This document shows, in pieces, positions 2,968 to 51,879 of a DNA stretch of 64,000 nt. The notes beneath the pieces are model-generated. The model did no database searches and was not told the origin of the DNA. It was given only the letters and a program-made list of their open reading frames with translations. Origin of the DNA: Candidatus Latescibacterota bacterium (GTDB taxonomy: Bacteria > Latescibacterota > UBA2968); NCBI GenBank assembly GCA_965232265.1, contig CBDDPH010000002.1, positions 1,595,660 to 1,659,659 of the forward strand, given 5' to 3'. A program made the position numbers and the translations under genes. Position 1 is the first letter of the stretch, and every line of letters starts with the position of its first letter.

Positions 2968-4041
2968 TTAAAAGCTATAAAATGCCTTTGCATTTTTGTA
3001 CAGAATTTTTCCTAGTAATGCATCCGATAAGCCTCTGGGAATTGCGTCTATTGGCGCGTCAAAATGCCAATGTGGATAGTCTGTGGAAAACATCAGCATG
3101 TCATCCGATTCCAGATGGTCCATAACTTGCAACAGATATTCGGCTTCTGGCGGGGCGTCCATGGGCTGTAGCGTCATCCGAATGTGTTCGCGGATATATT
3201 CCGACGGTGGGCGTTTGACCCATGGTATGTCGCGGCGCAAGCCCTTCCATTCCTTATCGATGCGCCACATGAATGCGGGCATCCATGTCCAGCCGCCTTC
3301 GATGAGTGCGATGCGTAATTCCGTAAACCGATCAAACGCGCCTTCTACGACCAAACTCATGACCTGAGACTGAAATATTTGCGCCATGTCGGCCATTTCT
3401 TCGGCGTAGGTCAAAGGCCAACCAACGGGCGTGGGCGGCAGGCTGGATGCGCCGCCATAGTGAATCCCGATCACGAGGTCGCGTTTTACGGCTGCTTCAA
3501 ATAATGGGTCGTACAAGCTATTGCCATAAGGTTGATATGATCTGACCGGCACGATGACCTGAATAAAGCCCGGGTGGTCGCCGAATCGCTCGATTTCGCG
3601 TGCGGCGAGTACCGGGTTTTGGCTGGGCACTACGAGAGAGGCGCGCAGTCGGTTGTCTTTGTTTAACCACGCGTCGATTTGCCACTGGTTGATCGCGGTT
3701 GCAAGCGATGCAGACAAGTTTTCGTTGTGTACACTTTGCACGCGGTAAGCGCAGGTTAAGATCCCGATTTCGACATCCCAGGCGTCCAGTACCTGCTTTT
3801 TTAGCAATTCAAAATCAGACCCCGGCGGCCCATTTTTCGGCTTTGTGCCTTTTCGCGCAGATGTGGGTGCTCGTGCGGGATAATCATTCGCGTTGGGTCC
3901 CACAAATGCCGATTCGTCGATGTATGCAACCCAGTGTTCTTCCAGATATGGAATCAGGGCGTCCAAACCGGGCAATTCGTTGTGAATATCACAATCGATG
4001 ATGGGATGATAAAAGGGGTTGGCAGGTGTATTGCGCGGCAT
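2968..4041 (-). CDS. Amidohydrolase family protein (amidohydrolase_2 / ACMSD-like metal-dependent hydrolase)
   Basis: N-terminal IDCDIH and C-terminal FSTDYPHWHFD metal-ligand motifs. Start moved to the ATG at 4039-4041, 1 nt after the upstream gene stop (TAA C ATG), instead of the track start at 4098. Confidence 0.75.
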   Translation of the reverse strand: MPRNTPANPFYHPIIDCDIHNELPGLDALIPYLEEHWVAYIDESAFVGPNANDYPARAPTSARKGTKPKNGPPGSDFELLKKQVLDAWDVEIGILTCAYRVQSVHNENLSASLATAINQWQIDAWLNKDNRLRASLVVPSQNPVLAAREIERFGDHPGFIQVIVPVRSYQPYGNSLYDPLFEAAVKRDLVIGIHYGGASSLPPTPVGWPLTYAEEMADMAQIFQSQVMSLVVEGAFDRFTELRIALIEGGWTWMPAFMWRIDKEWKGLRRDIPWVKRPPSEYIREHIRMTLQPMDAPPEAEYLLQVMDHLESDDMLMFSTDYPHWHFDAPIDAIPRGLSDALLGKILYKNAKAFYSF

Positions 4042-4866: not shown

Positions 4867-6105
4867 TTATCCAAATCGTTCCCGATATTCTCGTTCATAT
4901 TCTTCCGATCCGTCATCCAGCTTTAATTCCAGACGAATGCCGGGTAGAAAGCCCGTTAGTCTGCCCGCCAAAAAGTCCTCGCGGTAGCTTCCGTCTGGAT
5001 AATGGGTCTGCCGTCCGTCGGGCCAGCATAAGGTGTGAATTTGTCGCCTTTCTTCGAGTTTGAAATCTGGATCAACGCGATAGCGTTCAATGACGTCCCA
5101 ATCCAGTTCAATACCCAATCCCGGTGCGTTGGGTACGCGAATATGTCCGCCTTCCACTTTGAAGTCTTTGACGAGTGGATGCGTCCAGATGTTCACGCAG
5201 GGGATCGCGGGCCAGCGCGCATGCGATAATACAGCGCCCAGATGCACGCCCCACATGGTGGTCAATCCCGATCCCACCAGTTGCAGCCAGAACGGCATAT
5301 TGGCTTCTGCGGCGAGGGTGCCCTGTGTCATCACGCGAGTCGCCCCACCGCCTACGACAAATCCGTCGCATACGCCTTCGCGCACGGCGGTCATAAAGGG
5401 CGGATTGCCAAAGTGCATGGCAATGGGGCTGGCGATTTTTTGCCGCAACAGGGCGTTGCCCGCGACGTCGTTTTGCGGGATGGGCGTTTCGACCATTGCC
5501 AACTGGCTATACGTGTCTTCTAACCGTCGAATCAAGGGTGCGGCGTAATCTACGCCGAGCAATAGGCCATTGAAGTCCGCGTCGATTTTGAAATAACTCG
5601 GCACGGATTTTCTTATGGCTTCAAATTGTTCTGCGGGATAAAACCAGGGGCGCGCCTTGACTTTCATTGTGGTGAATCCGTGGTCTATCGCTGCCCGCGC
5701 TTCCATAACCCATTCTTCGGGGGTGCGGTCCTGCGACCACCACGATACGGGACATGTGTCTCGATATTGCACACCCAGCAGTTTGTGACACGGCACGCCG
5801 AGCGTTTTTCCCGCTGCGTCAAAGAGTGCCATTTGCAAGCCCGCGCCCAGGCTGTCATCCCACAAATGATCGAATATGTTTTTTCCGCGCACGCGAGCAA
5901 ATTGTCTCTCATTCGATTGTCCCCACGTATATCGCGTCAGGGTTTCGCCATATCCGACCACGCCCGCAGCGGTCGTTATTTTGCACACATCCACAAGCGA
6001 CCAAAACGGTACCCGAATTTGTTTCACTTTTGCACACCGCGGATGAAATGGGACGTGCAGAAGGATGTGTTCAATATTCGCAACTTCGCAGTCTTTGGCG
6101 GTCAT
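4867..6105 (-). CDS. Enolase-superfamily enzyme (mandelate racemase/muconate lactonizing enzyme family)
   Basis: MKVKARPW (KxK motif), KIDADFNG and VETPIP metal-ligand motifs in the expected order. 412 aa. Confidence 0.7.
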   Translation of the reverse strand: MTAKDCEVANIEHILLHVPFHPRCAKVKQIRVPFWSLVDVCKITTAAGVVGYGETLTRYTWGQSNERQFARVRGKNIFDHLWDDSLGAGLQMALFDAAGKTLGVPCHKLLGVQYRDTCPVSWWSQDRTPEEWVMEARAAIDHGFTTMKVKARPWFYPAEQFEAIRKSVPSYFKIDADFNGLLLGVDYAAPLIRRLEDTYSQLAMVETPIPQNDVAGNALLRQKIASPIAMHFGNPPFMTAVREGVCDGFVVGGGATRVMTQGTLAAEANMPFWLQLVGSGLTTMWGVHLGAVLSHARWPAIPCVNIWTHPLVKDFKVEGGHIRVPNAPGLGIELDWDVIERYRVDPDFKLEERRQIHTLCWPDGRQTHYPDGSYREDFLAGRLTGFLPGIRLELKLDDGSEEYEREYRERFG

Positions 6106-13112: not shown

Positions 13113-14855
13113 ATGTCCGTTTTACATATTACGTCACCTGGTGCCCCTCCTGAGTGGGCACTTTTGCAACGCGAACTGATGCGCGCGCAGGCCACGGCAT
13201 GCGAGGTTTTTTATCACCGCTATTTTGACAACCGGGGGTATCTCAAGTGCATTCCTCGGTGGGGAGGTAACGATGGGCCAGATGATGCGATAGAGAATCT
13301 CACCGGGTATTCGATGGTGCATACGCTGGGTGGCCCAACGCATATCCTCGATCTCTACAAGCAGGCGTGGGAAGGGCATATCGAGCAGTATTCCGAGGCG
13401 AAGACCGAAGTTGTGCCCATTGGGCGTGACGGCATGTATTACAAGGAGTTTCCCGCGTGCTTCGATTGGTTCCACCACGGGGAATCGCTCACCATTTTTA
13501 ATTTGCAGGGTCTGTCCGATCCCCATGAAGTCACTTTTGGTCATCGCGTGCGTCGCTACGCGGGTTTTTATATGGACGAAGATCCCCAAGCGAAGAATTA
13601 CGATCCCAAGCACAAAGTAATCCGCAGTCTTTTCAATGGCAGTCGGGGACCTCTGTTGCGAAAAGCTACGGGTCTTGATTGGGCAGGAGATCCCTTTGAG
13701 GTTGAAGGACGCTTTCCCGCGCCGCGCCACGGTGAGCGCAATTTTGAAGAGATGCTTATGCATTTTGAAGATTATACCGATGTGATTGGCGATCATCCCC
13801 TGAATCTGGCGGCGACTACGCTCGGTCTCAATGCGTTCGCGCTGGCTGGTGAGGAGAAATACCGCTCATGGTTGCTGGAATATGTGGAAGCGTGGTCTGA
13901 TCGCGCGGCTGAGAATAATGGTATTATCCCGTCCAATATCGGTCTTGATGGGAGTATTGGCGGCGCGTGTGATGGCAAGTGGTATGGCGGTTGTTATGGC
14001 TGGGGATTTACGGTGGTTGTGCCGCAAACAGGCGCGCTTGCCAATCGCAATTCCATAGCCCGCGGTGTTGCGGGGTTTGGCAATGCCCTGCTTCTGACGG
14101 GTGACCAAAAGTATCCCCATGTCTGGCGCACGATGATCAATGCGGTGAATAGCAATAGCAAGAATGTCGATGGGGAAATACAGTATCCGCAGATGCACGG
14201 CGACGATGGTTGGTATAGCTATAGCCTCCAGCCCTTCAATCAGGGGGCGCTCGATGTGTATTACTGGACGATGGATGATGCCGATCTTCAATATATTTCC
14301 TCAGATCCATGGATAGATTATCTCCAGGGGAATAATCCCGATCATCCTGCGCGCACGTTGCGAAATGCGTTGAGCGCGATTCGCGGGAAGATGGAGAATG
14401 TGCGCAATGATACGTCTTCTACGGATACCCGGTTGTCCGACGATCCATTGCCGTACAATCCCGCAACGACTGTGAATGCGCTTATCCAGCTCCAACTGGG
14501 TGGTCTGGCACCGCGTCACGGCGAACCCCTGCATTGTCGCGTGCGTTATTTTGATCCCGAGAATCGCCGTCCTGGATTGCCGGCGGATGTGGCTGCTCTC
14601 GTCGAATCGCTGAACGCGGATGGTGTTGTGTTATCACTCGTGAATGTCAATCAGACCGAACACCGCGATCTCATTATCCAGGGCGGTGCTTATGCCGAAC
14701 ACCAGATTATTGCTGCGGAGGTCGATGGCAATACTTATGATCTCGATGCATCGTGGATGTCCGTTCGCCTGGGTCCCGGTTGCGGTGCGCGACTTACACT
14801 GAAAACAGAACGCTATGTCAATTCCCCCACTTTTGCGTTTCCCTGGGAGAGATAA
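13113..14855 (+). CDS. Hypothetical 580 aa protein (no motif recognised)
   Basis: Long ORF with AAGGAG RBS, same strand and tightly spaced with its neighbours. Confidence 0.5.
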   Translation: MSVLHITSPGAPPEWALLQRELMRAQATACEVFYHRYFDNRGYLKCIPRWGGNDGPDDAIENLTGYSMVHTLGGPTHILDLYKQAWEGHIEQYSEAKTEVVPIGRDGMYYKEFPACFDWFHHGESLTIFNLQGLSDPHEVTFGHRVRRYAGFYMDEDPQAKNYDPKHKVIRSLFNGSRGPLLRKATGLDWAGDPFEVEGRFPAPRHGERNFEEMLMHFEDYTDVIGDHPLNLAATTLGLNAFALAGEEKYRSWLLEYVEAWSDRAAENNGIIPSNIGLDGSIGGACDGKWYGGCYGWGFTVVVPQTGALANRNSIARGVAGFGNALLLTGDQKYPHVWRTMINAVNSNSKNVDGEIQYPQMHGDDGWYSYSLQPFNQGALDVYYWTMDDADLQYISSDPWIDYLQGNNPDHPARTLRNALSAIRGKMENVRNDTSSTDTRLSDDPLPYNPATTVNALIQLQLGGLAPRHGEPLHCRVRYFDPENRRPGLPADVAALVESLNADGVVLSLVNVNQTEHRDLIIQGGAYAEHQIIAAEVDGNTYDLDASWMSVRLGPGCGARLTLKTERYVNSPTFAFPWER

Positions 14856-24570: not shown

Positions 24571-25386
24571 ATGTATAGAATTTCTTATGACGGTAGCAAT
24601 AAGAAAGTGATGTGGCAGGAGATGTGGCGGCACGAGTTTGAGGACGCTTTGGAGCGCGATCCCGTGGTGATTGTGCCGGTGGGATCTGTGGAGCAGCACG
24701 GGCCGCATTGTCCGATGGATGTGGATATTTCAGCGCCGTTCTATATGGCGGTGACTGTGGCGCAGCGCGTGGATGATTTTCCCGTGATTGTCGCGCCGCC
24801 GGTGTGGTCGGGGTTTACGCATTATAATATGGGATTTCCCGGTACGATCAATTTGCGTTTGGAGACGTTTCAGAATTTGCTGGCGGATATTTTTCGCAGT
24901 ATTTATGCCAATGGGTTCAAGCGGATTATTTCCGTAAATGGACACGGGGGCAATGCCGCGCCCTGTCGCGCTGTTTCGTGGCAGGTGGCAGAGGAGAATA
25001 TTTTTACGCTGTCATTTAGCTGGTGGGATATGGTGGATAAGGAGTTGCGGGAATGGAGCGCGACAAATGAAGGCGTGGGGCACGCTGGGGAGTGGGAGAC
25101 GGCTGTGCAGCTTCACCTGCGCGAACATCTCGTTGATAAGAGCCGTATTGACAGCGATGTGACGGGGACGAGACCCTTTAGCGATGAACTGTCATTTGCG
25201 GAATTTGCCGAGCGGCGACGCGATACAAAAAAAGATACGGGCATTATGGGCGATGCGTTTGCTGCGAGTGCGGAAAAGGGCGCACGCATTTTTGAACTGG
25301 CCTGTAAACGCCTGGAAAAGCTGGTGTGCGAGTATCACGAGTTGCCCGTGCGCGAGTACCGAGAGTTCGGGTCTCACTGTCTTTGA
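24571..25386 (+). CDS. Creatininase-family amidohydrolase
   Basis: VIVPVGSVEQHGPHCPMDVD and SVNGHGGN motifs. ATG at 24571, 7 nt after a GGAGGG RBS. Confidence 0.8.
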   Translation: MYRISYDGSNKKVMWQEMWRHEFEDALERDPVVIVPVGSVEQHGPHCPMDVDISAPFYMAVTVAQRVDDFPVIVAPPVWSGFTHYNMGFPGTINLRLETFQNLLADIFRSIYANGFKRIISVNGHGGNAAPCRAVSWQVAEENIFTLSFSWWDMVDKELREWSATNEGVGHAGEWETAVQLHLREHLVDKSRIDSDVTGTRPFSDELSFAEFAERRRDTKKDTGIMGDAFAASAEKGARIFELACKRLEKLVCEYHELPVREYREFGSHCL

Positions 25387-25421
25387 ACGCGGATTGTTGT
25401 CTCCCAATTAGGAACAAATGC

Positions 25422-27719
25422 ATGTCTCTCGCTCTTAGAATCATCCGTCTAAAGGCCATGCAAGCGATGCGCTTGCGCGGTAGGACAGCGCAAATTATTC
25501 GCTGTCTTTTTTCGCCTTTTGCCTTTTATCTGTGTGTATCTGCGAAAAACGCTCAAATTATTCTCGTTTTTTTCTGCGGATGCTTTTCATCTGTCAGCTA
25601 TGCTTCTTCTCCACCGGCCACTGATGTTCATATTTGCGAAGTTATCGATGACGAAGACATGTGGGCACGCGATAGTCTGTATGCTGCCGCAAAGCAAGCA
25701 TTAAATGTGGGCGAACCGCGCACCGTGCGGATGATCTACTTTTTGCCGAATGACCGCCCATTTCAGCAAGCTGTGGTTGATTCGATGAAAGTGACAATTC
25801 GCCAGATACAGACGTTTTATGCCGAGCAGATGGAGGCACACGGCTATGGCCGCAAGACCTTTCGCTTTGAAACCGATGCACAGGGCGGCCCAGTGGTCCA
25901 TCGCGTGGATGGGCAGCATCCCGATAGTCAGTATCTCGACAATACATTTGCCACTTTGTTTAATGAGATTAGACAAGCGTTTGATGCCACACAGAATATT
26001 TACTTTATCGTTGTTGACAACAGTACGAATCGAATTGGGCAGGCGGCCGGTAGTGCAAGACTGATGGGGAAAAATGGCGGCATTTGCTTCGTGCCTATCG
26101 GATTTCACTGGACAACGGCGGCCCATGAACTCGGACACACTTTTGATTTGCGTCACAATTTCAATGATGATACGTACATTATGTCGTATGGTCGCCAAGG
26201 ACGGTATCAATTATCTGCGTGCCATGCGGAATTTTTGTCCGTGCATCCCTATTTCAATCCCGATATACCAACTGAAGAGGCACAGCCACCAACTGTCGAA
26301 CTCGTTTCGCAGACTGGATATCCAGCCGGTTCAAAGAGCGTTTCTATCCAACTCAGAGTCAGCGATTCGGATGGGCTGCATCAAGTGATCTTATTTGTTA
26401 CTACAATCCCCCCACATTCTGCTACTGGATCTTATGAAGTGAAGTCGTGTCGTGGATTGGCAGGCGAAAGCGATGTCATTGTTGAATTTGATTACGATGG
26501 CGTTATGCCATCTGATAGCAGCACGAGTCTTTCTGATCCTGTCGAGCATCGGATTTATGTGGAGGCTGTTGATTCTTTTGGGAATGCTGGCAATGCGCGT
26601 TTTGAGCTATTTGATATTTCGACTCGGCGCAACCTCATCGCTACCTTTGAAGAACATACGGGGAATGTCTATTCGGTGGCGTTTTCACCTGATGGCACCA
26701 CTCTCGCTTCCGGGGCATCGGATCCCTCAATCAAGCTGTGGGATGTTGCGACACGGACAAATTTCGCCACGCGTACACGATTTACGAGTAGCGTTTATTC
26801 CGTGTCATTTTCACCCGATGGGGCCATCCTCGCTTCCGGGTCTGGAGACACGGTCGCTCATCTGTGGGAAGTTGCTACGTGGGCAATGATTACCACGCTT
26901 CAAGGACATACAGATGACGTCACTTCCGTGTCATTTTCACCCGATGGGGCCATTCTCGCCTCCGGGTCAGAAGATCGCACAATCAAGCTGTGGGATGTTG
27001 CGACACGGACAAATATTGCCACCCTTGAAGGGCATACGGATGAGGTCACTTCCGTGTCATTTTCATCCGATGGGGGTATCCTCGCCTCTGGGTCATGGGA
27101 TGACACAGTCAAGCTATGGGATGTTGCGACACGGGCAAATTTCGCCACGCTTGAAGGACATACGCGTGGCGTCACTTCCGTGTCATTTTCACCCGATGGG
27201 GATATTTTTGCTTCTGGGTCATGGGATGACACAGTCAAGCTATGGGACGCTGTCACGGGGACAAACATCGCCACGTTTACAGGGCATAGAGGTAACGTCT
27301 ATTCCGTGTCATTTTCACCCGATGGGGGTATTCTCGCTTCTGGGTCATGGGATCGCACAATCAAGCTATGGGACGTTGTCACAGGGACAAACATCGCCAC
27401 GTTTACAGGGCATAGGCGTAGGGTCACTTCCGTCTCATTTTCGCCCGGTGGGACCATTCTCGCCTCCGGGTCATGGGATGACACAATCAAGCTGTGGGAT
27501 ATGTCGCTGTATATCACCTCATCTATGCTGGCCCCTGCATCCGACTTTGATGGTGATGGGACTGTTGGCTTTGTAGATTTTTTGCAGTTTGTAGAAAAAT
27601 TTGGGTTAAGTGAGAAAGATAAAGCGTATCAAACGCGGTTTGATCTGGATGGCGATGGTGTGGTTGGATTTGGCGATTTTCTGATTTTTGCCAATAACTT
27701 TGGTAAGAAGGTATCATGA
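25422..27719 (+). CDS. Multidomain protein: metzincin-like Zn-protease domain + middle beta-rich region + 7 WD40 repeats + C-terminal dockerin-like Ca-binding repeats
   Basis: AHELGHTFDLRHNF (HExxHxxDxxH) plus YIMSYG Met-turn. Seven units of the type GHTDDVTSVSFSPDGAILASGSxDxTIKLWDV. DFDGDGTVGFVDFLQF and DLDGDGVVGFGDFLIF. Start is uncertain: 25422 is the first ATG after the creatininase stop, and the 5' ~180 bp overlaps a dispersed repeat. Confidence 0.8.
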   Translation: MSLALRIIRLKAMQAMRLRGRTAQIIRCLFSPFAFYLCVSAKNAQIILVFFCGCFSSVSYASSPPATDVHICEVIDDEDMWARDSLYAAAKQALNVGEPRTVRMIYFLPNDRPFQQAVVDSMKVTIRQIQTFYAEQMEAHGYGRKTFRFETDAQGGPVVHRVDGQHPDSQYLDNTFATLFNEIRQAFDATQNIYFIVVDNSTNRIGQAAGSARLMGKNGGICFVPIGFHWTTAAHELGHTFDLRHNFNDDTYIMSYGRQGRYQLSACHAEFLSVHPYFNPDIPTEEAQPPTVELVSQTGYPAGSKSVSIQLRVSDSDGLHQVILFVTTIPPHSATGSYEVKSCRGLAGESDVIVEFDYDGVMPSDSSTSLSDPVEHRIYVEAVDSFGNAGNARFELFDISTRRNLIATFEEHTGNVYSVAFSPDGTTLASGASDPSIKLWDVATRTNFATRTRFTSSVYSVSFSPDGAILASGSGDTVAHLWEVATWAMITTLQGHTDDVTSVSFSPDGAILASGSEDRTIKLWDVATRTNIATLEGHTDEVTSVSFSSDGGILASGSWDDTVKLWDVATRANFATLEGHTRGVTSVSFSPDGDIFASGSWDDTVKLWDAVTGTNIATFTGHRGNVYSVSFSPDGGILASGSWDRTIKLWDVVTGTNIATFTGHRRRVTSVSFSPGGTILASGSWDDTIKLWDMSLYITSSMLAPASDFDGDGTVGFVDFLQFVEKFGLSEKDKAYQTRFDLDGDGVVGFGDFLIFANNFGKKVS
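26647..27510. repeat. Seven tandem ~126-bp WD40-coding units with long identical DNA stretches
   Basis: Recurrent strings such as tccgtgtcattttcacccgatgggg and caagctgtgggatgttgcgacacggacaaat at a 126-bp period. Confidence 0.85.
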
Positions 27720-28737: not shown

Positions 28738-29511
28738 ATGTATTTGTACGGGATTCGCAATGCGAGTTTGAATATGGATTGGGGGAAAGATGCTTTTGCT
28801 ACAGCAGGGGATATTGGATTTGATGGGGTGGAGATTGTGCTGCGAGAGGAGGAGCGGTTGGATTGGCTGTTGAGTGCAGCGGGTCGGGAGGAGATTGGGC
28901 GATGGGTTGAGGAGACGGGCGCGCAAGCGTGTTCGATCAGTTTTGCCCTGTTTCGAGAATACAAGGGAAATGAGGAAAACGAGGCTGTGCGCGACCGCGT
29001 GGTGGGTCTTGTGCAAAAGGCGATTCGCGCGTGTAAGGGGATGGGGGGTGTCGGTATTTTGCTTCCGTATTTCGATGGGGAGAATCTCGATATGTCGAGC
29101 GCGCATGCAGAATTGCTGATTGAAGACCTGAAGCGATGCGCCCCTGTCGCTGAAGACGAGGGTATTAAAGTTGCTCTGGAGACGAGTTTTTCTCCGGGAT
29201 TGTTGAGGACGATTTGCGATGGCGTGGGGTCTGAGATGGTGGGGGTGTATCAGGATACGGCGAATGCGCTGCAATACGGGTACGATTCGGTCGATATGCT
29301 CGTTACTTTACCTGAACATACCAAACTGATTCATCTGAAAGATACGCGGCGTTCAGATCTGGGCGAAGGCGATGTGGATTTTCCCGCGTGTCGAGATGCG
29401 ATTGCACAGATCGGTTATGAGGGTTGGCTGATTTTTGAAACGCCAGGAGGGTCTGATCCTATCGCATCGGGCAGGAAGAATCTGGGGTTTGCAAAAGAGA
29501 TGTTTGGGTAG
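28738..29511 (+). CDS. Sugar phosphate isomerase/epimerase (xylose isomerase-like TIM barrel)
   Basis: Starts MYLYGIRNASL. FDGVEI, ALETS and LIHLKD motifs typical of the fold. The upstream part of the track ORF is alternate-frame read-through of the formamidase 3' end. Confidence 0.65.
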   Translation: MYLYGIRNASLNMDWGKDAFATAGDIGFDGVEIVLREEERLDWLLSAAGREEIGRWVEETGAQACSISFALFREYKGNEENEAVRDRVVGLVQKAIRACKGMGGVGILLPYFDGENLDMSSAHAELLIEDLKRCAPVAEDEGIKVALETSFSPGLLRTICDGVGSEMVGVYQDTANALQYGYDSVDMLVTLPEHTKLIHLKDTRRSDLGEGDVDFPACRDAIAQIGYEGWLIFETPGGSDPIASGRKNLGFAKEMFG

Positions 29512-29513
29512 GC

Positions 29514-29599
29514 TGGCAGAGGGCGAGGGACTCGAACCCTATGCGGTTGCCCGCACCACCGACCAATGTCGGGCGGCCACCATTGACCGTTCACCCCCT
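29514..29599 (-). ncRNA. tRNA-like element, unit 1 (no canonical anticodon loop)
   Basis: Minus strand: AGGGGGT-GA-ACGG/TCAATGGTGG/CCGC - CCGAC ATTG GTCGG - TGCGG GCAA CCGCA - TAGGG TTCGAGT CCCTC - GCCCTCT-G-CCA. Acceptor, D, extra and T arms are present; a tetraloop hairpin sits at the anticodon position. Confidence 0.6.
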
Positions 29600-29620
29600 G
29601 CATTGATGCTGTTATTTTTT

Positions 29621-29713
29621 TGGCAGAGGGAGGGGGACTCGAACCCCATGCGATAATTCGCACGCGGGCTTGTGTTTTGCCGCCCGCGGCCCACCTTGGA
29701 CCGTTCACCCCCT
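29621..29713 (-). ncRNA. tRNA-like element, unit 2 (no canonical anticodon loop)
   Basis: AGGGGGT...ACGG/TCCAAGGTGGG/CCGC - CGCGGGC [GGCAAAACACAA] GCCCGCG - TGCGA ATTA TCGCA - GGGG TTCGAGT CCCC - TCCCTCT-G-CCA. Confidence 0.6.
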
Positions 29714-29734
29714 GCATTGATACTGTTATTTTCT

Positions 29735-29829
29735 TGACAGAGGGTGAGGGACTCGAACCCCATGCGACAATTCGCACGCGGGCTTGTGTTTTGCCGCCCG
29801 CCAGGTTAGCCTTTGCCTGTCCACCCTCT
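29735..29829 (-). ncRNA. tRNA-like element, unit 3 (no canonical anticodon loop)
   Basis: AGAGGGT-GG-ACAGG/CAAAGGCTAA/CCTGG - GCGGGC [12-nt loop] GCCCGC - TGCGA ATTG TCGCA - GGGG TTCGAGT CCCT - ACCCTCT-G-TCA. The 7-bp acceptor stem is perfectly Watson-Crick. Confidence 0.6.
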
Positions 29830-29865
29830 ATCTATTTTGACAAAGCTGCCCGCTCACGGGTTTCT

Positions 29866-30837
29866 CTATGAGTGAGGGCGCAGTTCGCCCAGAGATTGTT
29901 CGCCAGGTTGGATATATTCTACGGCTGGGCTTTCGACACGCCCGTAGGCATTCCACACTTTGAATCCGAGTAAAGACAGGAGATCGGGCGATGCATCAGC
30001 CAGGACTTCGGGAGCCGTGCCTATGGTGAAGTTCTCCTGCGGACGGAATTGGGGTCCGCAGAATGTGGTGAGTATGGCCCAGCGCAGTTGATCGCTTATA
30101 TTGGCTCCCGTGCCGTGCCAGATGCGTCCGTCGAGGAATCCAACTGTGCCGGCTGGTCCTTCGAGGGCGACTGTTTCGATGGTGTTGTCGTCGGGATTGT
30201 CTGGCCGTCGCCCCCACAGGTGGCTGCCGGGGACGATGCGGGTGCCGCCGTTTTCTGCTGTGAAGTCGCCGATCATCCAGACCACGTTGATGACGACGCG
30301 GGGCCAGATGGATGCGGTATCGGGTTCGTCTGTTTGCTCGCGGGTGATGGAGCCTGCGGGTAAATGCGTTCGGTCCGCATGCGTTGGCATGGGCATCCAC
30401 CACTGGTCTGTGTGCAGGCGCATGGGAACGCCGCCGGGTTTGGCGATGTTGGCCGAATGGCTCGATAGCAGATAATCATTGCCCAGTGCGTGATCTATGA
30501 TGTTGCGAACCCCTGAGTGTAATAGCATGTCTTGAAATACCCGACCTTTGTTGATCAGCATCCACACGCGCTGGTTGACGCCTCCTGCAGATTGTGTAAA
30601 CGCCCCCGTGCGTACCTGCCCGTTTTTATTTTTAAAATCCCCCCAGTTTTGTTTTGCACCCCCGTCTTCAAATGCAAGCCCGCGTTGTTTTTCGGCAAGG
30701 GCCTGTTCTTTTAGACGGGTTTTAATTTTTATGAGGCCTTCTGCATTGAGCGCGTTGGCGAGCAGGCCATAACCACAGGTGTCGAGTTGGGTTTTGACCT
30801 GTGCGAGGTCTTCGGTGGGTTGTGGAAGTTCAGACAT
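29866..30837 (-). CDS. Phytanoyl-CoA dioxygenase (PhyH) family Fe(II)/2-oxoglutarate oxygenase
   Basis: MRLHTDQWW (HxD), GGTRIVPGSH and RIWHGTGAN motifs. GAGGA RBS. Confidence 0.8.
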   Translation of the reverse strand: MSELPQPTEDLAQVKTQLDTCGYGLLANALNAEGLIKIKTRLKEQALAEKQRGLAFEDGGAKQNWGDFKNKNGQVRTGAFTQSAGGVNQRVWMLINKGRVFQDMLLHSGVRNIIDHALGNDYLLSSHSANIAKPGGVPMRLHTDQWWMPMPTHADRTHLPAGSITREQTDEPDTASIWPRVVINVVWMIGDFTAENGGTRIVPGSHLWGRRPDNPDDNTIETVALEGPAGTVGFLDGRIWHGTGANISDQLRWAILTTFCGPQFRPQENFTIGTAPEVLADASPDLLSLLGFKVWNAYGRVESPAVEYIQPGEQSLGELRPHS

Positions 30838-30849
30838 GCGTATTCCTCA

Positions 30850-32148
30850 TTATCGGGGCAAAATGCCATACTGGCGCAGGGTGCTTTCCAGTGTTGGCCT
30901 ACTAAGGCGAATGCGGTCGTCGTTTAATAAATAGGAGAAGACGTAGCCGAGGCCGAGCATAAAAATTCCGATCAAGAAGCAATAGATGACTGCGCGGTCG
31001 GGGTATTGGTCTTTCAGATACCCCACGTAGAGCGGTCCAAAGATGCCCGCTGCGGCCCAGGCGGTTAGGATTGCCCCGTAGATTGTGGACATTTTTTTGC
31101 TGCCAAAAACGTCGAGAACAAAAGACGGCATTGTGGCAAAGCCGCCGCCAAAGCACAACAATACATAACAGACAAGCGCGGAAAAGATCCAGGGGTTGCG
31201 CTCCGTCATTAAGATGCCGAAGACGATCATCTGGCTGGCGAGTAAAATTCTGAAGACGCCAACGCGACCGATGCGATCCGATAGCAATCCCCAGAAGAGC
31301 CGCCCCACGCCGTTGCACAGGGAACTGACTGCGATCAGCGTGGCACCGTATTCGGCGAGTGTTGCCGGCTCCATGGATGGATCCGCAAATCCCCAAACTT
31401 CTTGCAGGAGTTCCGACTGAAAGCTGATGACGGAGATGCCCGCGGCGATGTTAAAGAAAAATACGATCCACATGAGGGCAAATTCAGAAGACCGCAGATA
31501 AGGCGCGACAGTGTCTTCGTATTCCATCGGATCATCGTCAGAAACGGGTACGGCGGCGGCTTTGGGATCGCTTAACACAAAGCTGGAGGGCAAGAGGATA
31601 CAGGCAAATACTATGCCGAGCCACAAAAAAATAAGGGGTAGATCCGACTCTGTTCGCAGTACGAGAAAGGGTGCCAGCACTTTGCTCAAGATAAATGCAC
31701 CCACGCCAAATCCCATCACGACGATGCCTGTCACCAGACCCTTGCGATCTGGAAACCACTTTGCCGCGGTTGCAACCGGCGTTACATAGCCAAGTCCAAT
31801 GCCCGCACCGCCGATAACGCCGTATCCCAGGTAAAAGAGTGGGATAAAGTCCAGATGAAGGGCGAGGCTCGCGATCATATATCCGCCGGAAAACATGATA
31901 CTGCCCGCGACTGCGAGTTTTCGGGGTCCGAAGCGCGGCAGCGTCGCACCTGCCCAGGCCGCGGATGTGCCGAGGGAAAAGATCGCGATGCTAAAAGCCC
32001 ACGCGGTTTCTGTGAATGTCCAGCCGAGTTGCCGGACCAGAAGGCTTTGAAAGAAGCTCCACGCGTACACAGTGCCGAAACAGAGTTGCAGGAGCGTGCA
32101 CAAGAGCGCGATGACGGAACGCGGAATCTGTATTTCTCGGTTTGCCAT
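30850..32148 (-). CDS. MFS transporter (oxalate/formate antiporter-like subfamily)
   Basis: 432 aa, 12 predicted TM segments. G..LPRFGPRK loop motif between TM2 and TM3. Confidence 0.8.
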   Translation of the reverse strand: MANREIQIPRSVIALLCTLLQLCFGTVYAWSFFQSLLVRQLGWTFTETAWAFSIAIFSLGTSAAWAGATLPRFGPRKLAVAGSIMFSGGYMIASLALHLDFIPLFYLGYGVIGGAGIGLGYVTPVATAAKWFPDRKGLVTGIVVMGFGVGAFILSKVLAPFLVLRTESDLPLIFLWLGIVFACILLPSSFVLSDPKAAAVPVSDDDPMEYEDTVAPYLRSSEFALMWIVFFFNIAAGISVISFQSELLQEVWGFADPSMEPATLAEYGATLIAVSSLCNGVGRLFWGLLSDRIGRVGVFRILLASQMIVFGILMTERNPWIFSALVCYVLLCFGGGFATMPSFVLDVFGSKKMSTIYGAILTAWAAAGIFGPLYVGYLKDQYPDRAVIYCFLIGIFMLGLGYVFSYLLNDDRIRLSRPTLESTLRQYGILPR

Positions 32149-36621: not shown

Positions 36622-38067
36622 TTATTTTATCAGACTCGCATACGCTTCTCGTCCTTGTCGGAAGAGGTCTTTGACTTCTTCGCGTTGCTGGTCGGTGTTG
36701 TAACGACCTGATGTGTCGATCCATTTGAGCGCGTCTTCGATGCCGTTGAGAAAATACTGTGCGGATTCGTTGCGCTCGGCAGGTGGGCGTCCGCAGGCAA
36801 AATAGACCGGGCTGCTGTGCGCGTAGATCGATTGGTCAAAGCTGTCGCGCTGGTTGCCCCAGAGACGGGCGGCGACCCAGCCGTCGCGGTCGATATTTAC
36901 CCGGTGGCGAATGGCGCCCTCGCGTTTGCCTTCGGGATAGTTTTCCCTGTGTATGATATGCCCGTTCATCGCGATTTCGGCGCAGTGAATGGGGTAATAG
37001 GATGTGAATGTGGATTCTATGTCGAGCGAGCCGCCAGAAGGCAATTCGACCGTGGCGCCCATGGGGTGGTCGTTTGCGTTCAGGTCAATGGCGGGACCAT
37101 TGGTGATAAAGGTGTTGCCCGATTTCATACCGGCTATCCAGTTTTCGTAGGAGAACGCGCCTCTGGTATTGACATAGACGCGGTTGTTGGAGCAGACGAA
37201 CCAGTCGGTGCCGGTGGAGGCGGGCAAGGCGATGCCGCAGTTGAGCAGTTTGTACCACAGGTCGTATTCGGGGTCCATCCAGAAGGGGTCGAACAGGTTG
37301 AAGGCGTCTAATTTGCCCAGTGCTGCGGCTATGGGGGCTTCCATGCCGCGACCATTGTGACACCATATTACGATGCCGCCCTGATCGCGGGCTTCGTCAC
37401 AGCAAAAGCACAGGGGGGGATAGTCGGGGTCGAATTGCGCGGTGAGGGTGTGGCCGCGGCTGACGGGTTGGATGAGGTTGCGGATGTTGAGGAACATGAC
37501 GTGCCCATATCCGAACCCCCAGGGCGAGTTTTCGCCGTAGTGGCGGTTTTCTTCGCCGATGTCGAGGACGTGATGTGCGGTGGTAAATTCGTTCATCACG
37601 CCGATGGGATATTTGTTGCTGGCGTAGGGGAGTTGCCTTCTGTCGAGGACGCTTACGACCGTGACGTTGTAGCCTTCCACGCTACAGTCAATCGCCAGTC
37701 GGTCATCGGGACGGGTCTCTTTTTCGTCGTAGTGGATGTGCGTGTTGCCCGGGTACCAGTTTTTTTCCTGTGGGATATACCAGCGGTTGAGGGTGATTTC
37801 GACGTCTTTGACGCCGTTTTCCGGCATTTCGACCACGGTGCGGATGGGTTCGTATTCCGTGCCGCGTTCGACCAATATGTCGGTGCGCCCTCGCGAGGCT
37901 TGAACTTCAAATTCGCCATCGCAGAAGAAGAAGGGCGTGCCGGGTCCGCGTTTGAGCATGGCCTCGCGCGGGTGGCAGAAACGGCCGTTGGCGGTCAGGA
38001 CGTGTACTTTGGCGTTGATGTGTTCGCCTGTGGCGCTGTCAATAATATGTCCGTGCAGAGTGCCCAT
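36622..38067 (-). CDS. Metal-dependent hydrolase, PHP/CehA-McbA-like, with N-terminal carboxypeptidase-regulatory-like beta domain
   Basis: GTLHGHIIDSATGEHINAKVHV (CarboxypepD_reg-like), GNTHIHYDE and WCHNGRG His clusters. Family assignment is tentative. Confidence 0.45.
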   Translation of the reverse strand: MGTLHGHIIDSATGEHINAKVHVLTANGRFCHPREAMLKRGPGTPFFFCDGEFEVQASRGRTDILVERGTEYEPIRTVVEMPENGVKDVEITLNRWYIPQEKNWYPGNTHIHYDEKETRPDDRLAIDCSVEGYNVTVVSVLDRRQLPYASNKYPIGVMNEFTTAHHVLDIGEENRHYGENSPWGFGYGHVMFLNIRNLIQPVSRGHTLTAQFDPDYPPLCFCCDEARDQGGIVIWCHNGRGMEAPIAAALGKLDAFNLFDPFWMDPEYDLWYKLLNCGIALPASTGTDWFVCSNNRVYVNTRGAFSYENWIAGMKSGNTFITNGPAIDLNANDHPMGATVELPSGGSLDIESTFTSYYPIHCAEIAMNGHIIHRENYPEGKREGAIRHRVNIDRDGWVAARLWGNQRDSFDQSIYAHSSPVYFACGRPPAERNESAQYFLNGIEDALKWIDTSGRYNTDQQREEVKDLFRQGREAYASLIK

Positions 38068-51163: not shown

Positions 51164-51766
51164 TTAAACGGGTTCGACTTCAACTGTGGTTATGTCGAGT
51201 GTTCGCAATACGCGAACCGGTGTCTTGTTTTGAATGGATTGCCCCGATTTGCTGCGCGCAGAGATGTAGTTGACGGCTCCGCTTTCCATTACGCGAATTT
51301 GACCGGTGCCATTTTCGGGGATGTCGATATAGACTTCGCCTTCATTGCCGATGCAGGACGATAGGTTTCGGTTATGCGATTCGGAGAGGTGCTGCACTTT
51401 GTAGAAGAAGTAGGCCACCAAAGCCATGCCTGCGCCGCCCCATATAACACCACGTAAAACCGAATTTTCGATAGAGAGACCCGCATCGAGATAGAGGGCA
51501 CCGGCCCATCCAAAGAGCATCCCAAAGGCGATTACAGAACGCACCGAGAGCAACTTAAAGGCGACGATGCCGTGATCGTGGGGGCCACCATCCACATCTG
51601 GCCCCACATCGTCGGCGCTGAGGTCATCCTGGGCAATGCCATCTGCCGAATCACTCAGGCCGATGAGTGTGGTGATAAATTGCCATAGGAATAGGACACT
51701 GAAAAAGACAGCAACGCCGTAAAATGCCTGATTGAGAGGCGCGAGTTCTGACCACCATGCCTGCAT
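51164..51766 (-). CDS. NfeD/YqiJ-like membrane protein with C-terminal OB-fold
   Basis: Four TM helices plus C-terminal GEVYIDIPENGTGQIRV...ISARS...VRVLR beta-rich tail. Located upstream of flotillin, as in yqiJK. Start at 51766 after a GGAGG RBS. Confidence 0.7.
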   Translation of the reverse strand: MQAWWSELAPLNQAFYGVAVFFSVLFLWQFITTLIGLSDSADGIAQDDLSADDVGPDVDGGPHDHGIVAFKLLSVRSVIAFGMLFGWAGALYLDAGLSIENSVLRGVIWGGAGMALVAYFFYKVQHLSESHNRNLSSCIGNEGEVYIDIPENGTGQIRVMESGAVNYISARSKSGQSIQNKTPVRVLRTLDITTVEVEPV

Positions 51767-51879
51767 ATTAACCTCCAGAAATCGATTGCGCGTTCCATCA
51801 ACCATTTTGGGTGTAGGAACCTGTTATTCCCAAATTTGTCCATGCAAGGAGCGAAAAGCAAGAGTTATTTCTTATCCGG

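Follow-up and report, generated by a model that had tools for sequence, protein, structure and literature searches.

Can an RNA that has no anticodon loop still be kept by selection as a tRNA-like molecule? The question is raised by three tandem units in a 64,000-nucleotide (nt) stretch of a Candidatus Latescibacterota bacterium genome (GTDB lineage Bacteria; Latescibacterota; UBA2968; assembly GCA_965232265.1, contig CBDDPH010000002.1, positions 1,595,660 to 1,659,659 of the forward strand), referred to here as the window. An initial annotation, made from the sequence alone, described three minus-strand units of 86, 93 and 95 nt that resemble tRNAs, lack an anticodon loop and end in CCA, CCA and TCA after a G. 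The coordinates bear this description out. Three cloverleaf units occupy window positions 29514–29829 on the minus strand: unit 1 (29514–29599, 86 nt), unit 2 (29621–29713, 93 nt) and unit 3 (29735–29829, 95 nt), with their 3′ ends spaced 107 and 114 base pairs (bp) apart. The encoded 3′ ends are CCA in units 1 and 2 and UCA in unit 3, each preceded by the discriminator G73. The units belong to a family of three paralogue types, T1, T2 and T3, represented here by units 1, 2 and 3, respectively. We propose that the array is probably a polycistron of non-decoding derivatives of a serine allo-tRNA (T3, T2, T1), matured like tRNAs and possibly charged with serine or alanine.

Folded on its own, each unit forms a four-arm cloverleaf at −42 to −44 kcal/mol (z-scores −1.7 to −2.6). 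The acceptor stem has 8 bp and the T stem 4 bp (9 and 3 in some minimum-energy folds). Single folds, RNAalifold and pair counts agree on a coaxial acceptor/T helix of 12 bp, split 8/4 and not 7/5. The extra arm has a 6-bp stem and a 4-nt loop in all three units. Of the arm anatomy first annotated, the discriminator G and the GG in the D loop hold, while the 7-bp acceptor stem, 5-bp T stem and 5-bp extra arm have to be revised to 8, 4 and 6 bp. Units 1 and 2 have a D arm like that of selenocysteine tRNA (tRNA-Sec), with a 6-bp stem and a GG-containing loop of 4–5 nt; the D arm of unit 3 is ordinary, with the 4-bp stem CAGG/CCUG and a 10-nt loop that also contains GG. Unit 1 carries a G3:U70 wobble in its 8-bp acceptor stem, the D loop AUGG, the extra arm GUGCGG-GCAA-CCGCAU, the T stem AGGG/CCCU and the 3′ end G73-CCA. 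The 8-bp acceptor stem of unit 2 combines G3:U70 with a U7-U66 mismatch, and is accompanied by the D loop AAGGU, the T stem GGGG/CCCC and, again, G73-CCA. In unit 3, the 8-bp acceptor stem has A3:U70, the T loop UUCGAGU sits on a 4-bp stem, and G73 is followed by UCA.

At the anticodon position, unit 1 has the hairpin CCGAC-AUUG-GUCGG (29559–29572), a 5-bp helix closed by the tetraloop AUUG. Unit 2 has a 5-bp helix with the 12-nt loop GGCAAAACACAA (29670–29681) and unit 3 a 6-bp helix with the 12-nt loop GGCAAAACACAA (29784–29795). A mechanical check found no register with a 5-bp stem and a 7-nt loop at this position in units 2 and 3, and no intron-like or bulge-helix-bulge motif is present in the units. 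ARAGORN found neither a tRNA nor a tmRNA in the whole window, and nothing in eight family loci. The anticodon loop is thus absent, as first described, and the proposal that these are structured tRNA-like RNAs and not ordinary decoders agrees with the failure of standard tools to find an anticodon arm in the window and the eight loci.

Searches against Rfam 15 returned nothing in the window at the gathering score, including the tRNA model RF00005. At relaxed thresholds, the sole real matches were to tRNA-Sec (RF01852), at 29.7 bits for unit 1, 30.6 for unit 2 and 21.8 for unit 3, against a cut-off of 47. The units are not tRNA-Sec: their branch measures 12 bp (8/4) and not 13 bp (8/5 in bacteria), and they have neither a UCA anticodon nor an anticodon loop. 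Features of tmRNA are likewise missing; ARAGORN was silent, and the units are only 86–95 nt long, without an insert. Up to E=10, Rfam gave no Y RNA or YrlA match, and the RNA ends form the acceptor stem, so that the YrlA-like scaffold considered in the initial annotation is not upheld.

Models made for the purpose differed in their power. Model R1 was derived from 16 published amber variants of allo-tRNAs and retained only 14 base pairs. RNAalifold had lost the acceptor and extra-arm pairs because the 9/3 and 8/4 sequences are offset; with these 14 pairs alone the model gave 33–38 bits for the units and up to 44 bits for ordinary serine tRNAs (tRNA-Ser), and so did not separate the two. A profile hidden Markov model (HMM) of the family, built from a hand alignment, scored full-length members at 48–75 bits, partial copies at 34–37 bits and tRNA-Ser at 25 bits or less. 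Its matches in the window were the three units alone (67.3, 73.1 and 58.8 bits for units 1, 2 and 3).

How widespread is the family? The family scan covered one genome per species, and further loci (labelled L below) were collected with neighbouring proteins as anchors. The same units occur in six Latescibacterota metagenome-assembled genomes (MAGs) or chromosomes, in more diverged form in the unclassified MAG KW1-S15_112, and on a few other metagenome contigs. The flanks of the window are 88–94% identical to five of these genomes. A metagenome scan with the T arm and the acceptor stem's 3′ strand returned mostly genuine tRNA-Ser genes and one true member, L099. In viral sequences, a two-part scan (GGGTGRAC...GGGTTCGAGTCCC) gave only ordinary tRNAs with chance upstream matches, and two further scans gave chance matches in coding sequence; a blastn search of the array against plasmid and phage records had no match. 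Each of five complete Latescibacterota chromosomes has one locus, counting only copies that fit the scan pattern. The family is low-copy and is not a miniature inverted-repeat transposable element (MITE) or a repetitive extragenic palindromic (REP) element; the initial annotation had named a high-copy family of this kind as the finding that would speak against its reading, and what is found instead is three tandem units in the window and one locus per complete chromosome. In the literature searched, which was incomplete in coverage, neither a family of tRNA-like RNAs without an anticodon nor any tRNA-like RNA from Latescibacteria was described.

The members fall into three paralogue types. T1 has the tetraloop hairpin and a Sec-like D arm, T2 a large loop and a Sec-like D arm, and T3 a large loop and an ordinary D arm; across the family, the D arm has a 6-bp stem and a 4–6 nt loop in T1 and T2, and a 4-bp stem and a 9–10 nt loop in T3. 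The order T3-T2-T1 is common to the window, to L111, whose protein next to the array is 82% identical to that of the window, and to the more diverged L099. Orthologues of T2 are found in L028, L041, L047, L055, L057, L099 and L111, with more distant ones in L054 and L032, and those of T3 in L111, L099 and L115. L115 has T3 alone, and L045 a single T1 at a rearranged locus. The three types in fixed order, the 8/4 architecture and the descent from tRNA-Ser discussed below were absent from the initial annotation.

Compensatory changes between the three copies had already been read as support for a real fold, and this support becomes much stronger when homologues are added. For this, a hand alignment was made of 19 units drawn from 11 loci, with its columns fixed by N as filler. 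In this alignment, 98.9% of the cells are standard pairs, compared with 45–58% when the 3′ partners are slid by 1–3 columns; both sides change at 17 of the 30 pairs, and none of 500 shuffles reaches any of five measures, counts that lean towards structure because the hand alignment was made to fit the structure and combines paralogues. In the D helix no pair is constant and five pairs change on both sides; at the anticodon position, the helix co-varies at all six of its pairs. RNAalifold, run on an untouched MAFFT alignment, independently recovered the acceptor helix (with pair 7:66 open), the D and extra helices and a 4-bp T helix, and most homologues fold alone into the same cloverleaf. The 6-bp extra arm and G73 are present in all 19 units, except that the extra arm has 5 bp in the T3 of L099.

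As a neutral yardstick for conservation, we used four-fold degenerate positions in the TIM-barrel gene beside the array. In the comparison of the window with L111, identity is 0.94 for T1, 0.82 for T3 and 0.69 for T2, against 0.59 at the four-fold degenerate sites; between the window and L115, it is 0.75 for T3 against 0.43. T1 is the most conserved type. The units are under clear purifying selection.

On which part of the RNA does this selection act? Across the 19 units, no variation is seen at A1:U72, G2:C71, G4:C69, G5:C68 and G73, nor at three of the T stem's four pairs. The G3:U70 wobble is found in 17 and C11:G24 in 18 of them, and the elbow, with the T loop UUCRANU and the GG of the D loop, is present throughout (19/19). 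The loop at the anticodon position measures 4, 9, 11, 12 or 16 nt across the family and is variable in sequence, though rich in A and C. With the acceptor end invariant and the loop at the anticodon position variable, what selection acts on is the body of the tRNA and its acceptor side rather than codon reading.

The bacterial serine identity set comprises G73, G2-C71, R4-Y69, C11-G24 and a large variable region, with no role for the anticodon, and the alanine set G2-C71, G3.U70 and G4-C69 (PMC9976931). The invariant positions of the units largely coincide with these published sets. The acceptor AGAGGG.../...CCCUCU with G73 is that of many genuine tRNA-Ser genes in metagenomes and phages, and T3 matches it exactly. 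In a viral scan, an 8/4 tRNA-Ser(GGA) gene came up in a cluster of 10 tRNAs on an AT-rich, phage-like contig of 208 kb (L121:3032–3118, minus strand). Its extra arm, GUGCGG-GCAA-CUGCAU, and its T arm, AGGG-UUCGAUC-CCCU, are almost the same as in the units. ARAGORN identifies the gene as tRNA-Ser, and its best Rfam match is a sub-threshold one to tRNA-Sec (37 bits), as it is for the units. Published 8/4 allo-tRNAs (supplement of PMC7590224) have the layout of the units, apart from their 7-nt anticodon loop. Judged by these sequence likenesses, the units derive from the lineage of allo-type serine tRNAs that Mukai et al. described (2017, Nucleic Acids Res 45:2776; PMC5389517).

Allo-tRNAs have been reported from Clostridia, Proteobacteria, Acidobacteria and phages; members that have G3:U70 and G73 undergo processing in E. 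coli and are charged with alanine and serine, one such allo-tRNA inserted both amino acids there, and inactive allo-tRNAs and polycistrons of irregular tRNAs exist, which were proposed to be regulatory RNAs (PMC5389517). The units share with them the 12-bp branch divided 8/4 (9/3 in some folds), the long extra arm, G73 (the discriminator of allo-tRNAs being G73 or U73) and, in some members, G3:U70. The Sec-like D arm, with its long stem and 4–5 nt loop, is shared by T1 and T2 and not by T3. Further likenesses are the false positives with the tRNA-Sec model, the polycistronic arrangement and the translational inactivity of some allo-tRNAs. They differ in that allo-tRNAs have a 7-nt loop with a nameable anticodon, whereas the units have a tetraloop or a loop of 11–16 nt (once 9 nt). 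The units also lie in Latescibacterota and have no toxin-antitoxin neighbours, and a fixed set of three paralogue types kept in the same order has no described counterpart among allo-tRNAs. As the anticodon loop is missing, we class the units as an anticodon-less derived variant and not as allo-tRNAs proper. The comparison with bacterial class II tRNA-Ser is similar: the acceptor AGAGGG/CCCUCU with G73 is identical in T3, and the units have C11:G24, a long extra arm and the T loop in common with an RNA whose recognition by seryl-tRNA synthetase (SerRS) is independent of the anticodon. The units differ from it in the 8/4 instead of 7/5 split, in G3:U70 instead of A3:U70 (T1 and T2), in the missing anticodon loop, and in their rejection by ARAGORN and the Rfam tRNA model.

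The surroundings of the array were compared across the family. In every genome with full context, the array is flanked upstream by a co-directional gene and on its other side by a convergent TIM-barrel gene. In the window, the latter encodes a xylose-isomerase-like protein of 257 amino acids (aa) (28738–29511, plus strand; Pfam AP_endonuc_2), and 2 nt separate the stop codon of the gene from the CCA of unit 1. Among the neighbours, this gene alone stays with the array across diverged genomes: orthologues of 72–94% identity with units at the 3′ end are found in L111, L115, L099, L109 and the close relatives. Other orthologues have no units at this position (L110; L116–118, 54%; L119–120, 83%) or, in L112–114, a remnant only. 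Upstream in the window are a PhyH-family dioxygenase (29866–30837) and an MFS transporter (30850–32148), both on the minus strand and assigned by Pfam; an exact-protein look-up of the PhyH product gave no record. The upstream gene is PhyH only in the clade of the window, and a SASA esterase in L111, L099 and L045. In L041 (~5806–5870), PhyH is cut to its first seven codons and fused to the array leader, with MFS and array intact, which is a recent deletion; in L106, a PhyH orthologue of 82% identity has no unit behind it. As the upstream gene is swapped or lost while the array is kept, the functional tie to the PhyH-MFS operon suggested by the initial annotation is not supported and the association is incidental; the two genes adjoin the element without belonging to it.

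A leader of 36 nt, AGAAACCCGTGAGCGGGCAGCTTTGTCAAAATAGAT (29830–29865, minus strand), runs from the PhyH stop codon to unit 3 and is conserved across relatives. Leaders of about 36 nt (GAAACYC-TTGAGCGCGCAG-nTTTGTCAA...) precede the first unit whatever its type or locus. The leader of the window is shared at the same locus by L028, L041, L047, L055, L057 and L109, and at other loci by L045 and L111, where the first unit is T1 or T3. The leader may be a promoter or an RNase P 5′ leader. The units are separated by two near-identical 21-nt spacers on the minus strand, spacer 1 (AAAAAATAACAGCATCAATGC, 29600–29620) and spacer 2 (AGAAAATAACAGTATCAATGC, 29714–29734). Both fit the consensus given in the initial annotation, which called them conserved, with zero mismatches, and no other match to it turns up in the window when up to three mismatches are tolerated (0.03 matches expected by chance). 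The T-arm core GGGTTCGAGTCCC similarly has three copies in the 64 kb, all in the array (0.04 expected by chance). Spacer 1 also lies between T1 and T2 in L028 and L057, with a near-identical version in L047; in L111 and L099, spacer 2 is unrelated. Spacer conservation is thus limited to close relatives, which fits sequence that is lost during processing.

How might such an array work? It would be transcribed on the minus strand, either from the 36-nt leader or by read-through from the upstream gene. RNase P and the enzymes of tRNA 3′-end formation would then release units of about 90 nt, and T3, having no encoded CCA, would need to receive one from the CCA-adding enzyme. A sequence-specific partner would recognise the mature RNAs at the acceptor end. 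The likeliest partners would be SerRS and, because of G3:U70 in T1 and T2, alanyl-tRNA synthetase (AlaRS); as both enzymes ignore the anticodon, units without one could still be charged. Having no anticodon, the RNAs would be unable to decode and would act off the ribosome as aminoacyl carriers or regulators. We put forward tentatively that they are carriers or sensors of serine or alanine, which supply a non-ribosomal acceptor or report charging status, with three specialised members.

Several observations weigh against the proposed polycistron of allo-tRNA(Ser) derivatives. The array is dispensable and unstable. Five close relatives (L028, L041, L047, L055 and L057) carry two units in the order T1-T2, L109 has T1 alone, L110 has none at the locus, and L112–114 have only a 3′ remnant, a decayed copy in which the extra arm, the T arm, the acceptor stem's 3′ strand and CCA remain beside the TIM-barrel gene (L112:2350–2394, also in L113 and L114). 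U72 of the units departs from C72 of the serine set and G73 from A73 of the alanine set, mismatches that make charging efficiency uncertain. No sigma-70-type promoter and no intrinsic terminator scored on the minus strand, and within about 15 kb there is no plausible partner gene, such as a transferase or a synthetase paralogue; among the 27 neighbouring proteins, there was no synthetase paralogue, Fem-type or other tRNA-dependent transferase, Ro60 (TROVE) protein, integrase or toxin-antitoxin system. The lean of the covariation counts mentioned above belongs here too. The fold, the family, selection on it, tRNA-Ser descent and the loss of the anticodon loop are observed; all that lies beyond the fold in the molecular sense, namely transcription, processing, charging and a downstream role, we infer.

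Other explanations have to be weighed against the same evidence. The array lies directly 3′ of a co-directional gene, often after a gap of about 30–36 nt, faces a convergent gene, and is not separated from the upstream gene by an intrinsic terminator. This layout would suit tRNA-punctuation modules, in which the units are RNase P and RNase Z signals that set the 3′ end of the upstream mRNA, or make it more stable, and insulate the convergent operons, and the released pieces have no function. RNase P requires a 12-bp acceptor/T helix with an intact elbow, and the units offer both. For punctuation, however, one unit would suffice, yet three types stand in fixed order in diverged genomes. Recognition of shape also leaves the invariance of the acceptor sequence, G73, G3:U70 and C11:G24 unexplained, while the other helices co-vary freely. 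Since, in addition, the upstream gene differs (PhyH, SASA or another), PhyH can be deleted with the array kept, and among close relatives that share these genes the units are fewer or absent, we regard punctuation as unlikely. We also doubt, somewhat more strongly, that the RNAs are decoys or regulators that titrate a synthetase, EF-Tu, a tRNA-modifying enzyme, or a tRNA-targeting toxin or phage factor without serving as substrates. Tertiary and acceptor identity elements that are intact in the absence of an anticodon would fit such a role, as would the patchy accessory distribution, which suits conflict or regulation, and the duplication of the KW1-S15_112 unit together with a 60-aa open reading frame (ORF); regulatory roles and toxin-antitoxin links were proposed for inactive allo-tRNAs (PMC5389517). 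But no toxin-antitoxin, defence or nuclease gene adjoins the array in the window, a decoy for an anticodon nuclease should keep the anticodon loop, and antisense matches of the 12-nt loop in the window are no more than expected by chance.

It is very improbable that the units are decaying relics, that is, pseudogenes of allo-tRNA(Ser) or partial duplicates left by integration at a tRNA-type attachment site, the latter being a possibility raised in the initial annotation. Unit number and order do shift among close relatives, down to the 3′ fragment in L112–114, and in L045 a TnpB/CRISPR block abuts the 3′ end of T1. Decay, however, is at odds with compensatory changes in every helix, including the replacement of the anticodon stem, with conservation far above that of neutral sites, and with a T3-T2-T1 order that persists in the window, L111 and L099, where the neighbouring protein has diverged (72–82%). 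Duplicates at attachment sites, which are partial copies of a 3′ tRNA half flanking an integrase island, find no support: the units are full length, with matching 5′ halves that co-vary with the 3′ halves, no integrase was found in the neighbourhood, and a 3′ fragment is seen only in L112–114. Least probable of all, to the point that we give it little room, is exotic decoding, in which the enlarged loops of T2 and T3 read mRNA by frameshift or multi-base pairing, or are trimmed or edited to a normal loop. The T2 of L111 can be drawn with a 7-nt loop, AUUCUGA (U33, anticodon UCU, G37), closed by a C-C mismatch, and allo-tRNAs with odd anticodons are translationally active (PMC5389517). Set against this are a loop conserved in neither length nor sequence (4, 9, 11, 12 and 16 nt), the tetraloop of T1, which is the best-conserved type, the rejection of all units by ARAGORN and the lack of any intron-like or bulge-helix-bulge motif.

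Known RNAs offer partial parallels to the proposed non-decoding allo-tRNA derivatives. The tRNA-like domain of tmRNA is an anticodon-less mimic with an acceptor stem, a T arm and G3:U70, which is processed by RNase P and charged with alanine. The units differ from it in having no reading frame, pseudoknots or large insertion, in G73 instead of A73, and in their full D and extra arms. YrlA and other bacterial Y RNAs are non-coding and carry their tRNA-like module internally, with the RNA ends forming the Ro60-binding stem; in the units, the ends form the acceptor stem, and no TROVE gene is found among the 27 neighbours. In Staphylococcus, tRNA-Gly species feed cell-wall synthesis; they have a normal anticodon loop and avoid EF-Tu through changes in the T stem. 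They provide the concept of aminoacyl carriers that act off decoding, for the units with hypothetical charging, and differ in keeping the anticodon loop that the units lack.

Allo-tRNAs have drawn attention chiefly as unusual decoders that nevertheless work, and as tools for genetic-code engineering. The array is a clean natural case of relatives that are probably translationally inactive: body, acceptor identity and extra arm are selected while the anticodon loop is replaced, so that selection is independent of decoding. It extends the allo-tRNA lineage to Latescibacterota and, being missed by standard tRNA finders and Rfam, the family should be useful to annotators. If the carrier or sensor role were true, it would define a bacterial class of “anticodon-less tRNAs” with T1, T2 and T3 as specialised members.

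Further observations were made at the array and in related loci. In the leader, a Bacteroidetes-like −7 box (yAGnTTTG) can be read by eye. The leader also contains a small hairpin, CCCGUGAGCGGG (window 29848–29861), whose score on the plus strand is that of a weak, terminator-like site for the TIM-barrel operon that converges on the array; relatives carry CCCTTGAGCGCG at this position and form no hairpin. At L045 (5056–7398, Latescibacteria chromosome OY282377), T1 is followed on the same strand by an IS4-like transposase fragment, a TnpB/Cas12f-like protein of 442 aa (Pfam Cas12f1-like_TNB, OrfB_IS605 and HTH_OrfB_IS605) and a CRISPR (clustered regularly interspaced short palindromic repeats) array of 11 repeats of ~36 nt with a 72-nt period. 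Neither a cas1 nor a cas2 ORF was seen in the part of this 8-kb locus that was examined. The mobile block occupies the exact position that the TIM-barrel gene has elsewhere.

In the KW1-S15_112 MAG, the 3′ two-thirds of a unit and a 60-aa ORF (MLETPPQTVQDRLRRQL...) are duplicated on two contigs (L054:4126–4494 and L032:3905–4312). The duplication spans 342 bp at 92% identity, the ORF has no Pfam match, and the L032 copy has a structured 39-nt insertion in the loop at the anticodon position. Two viral contigs (L128:~1697–1782 and L144:~3274–3359, minus strand) carry an irregular tRNA-like gene with the acceptor AGAGGGUG/CGCCCUCU, a short Sec-like D arm and a long extra arm, on which ARAGORN makes no call. 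Its loop CUUCAAA can be read by eye as containing a UCA anticodon, while the minimum-energy fold gives a 9-nt loop; the gene may be an opal-suppressor allo-tRNA or a tRNA-Sec-like gene.

Elsewhere in the window, ORFs of 580 aa (13113–14855, plus strand), 481 aa (36622–38067, minus strand) and 213 aa (51164–51805, minus strand) have no Pfam match at E≤0.001. An ORF of 797 aa (25326–27719, plus strand), as read from its translation, contains a metalloprotease-like HExxH motif (HELGH), WD40-like repeats in a long run and, at its C-terminus, DxDGDG repeats that resemble a dockerin or EF-hand.

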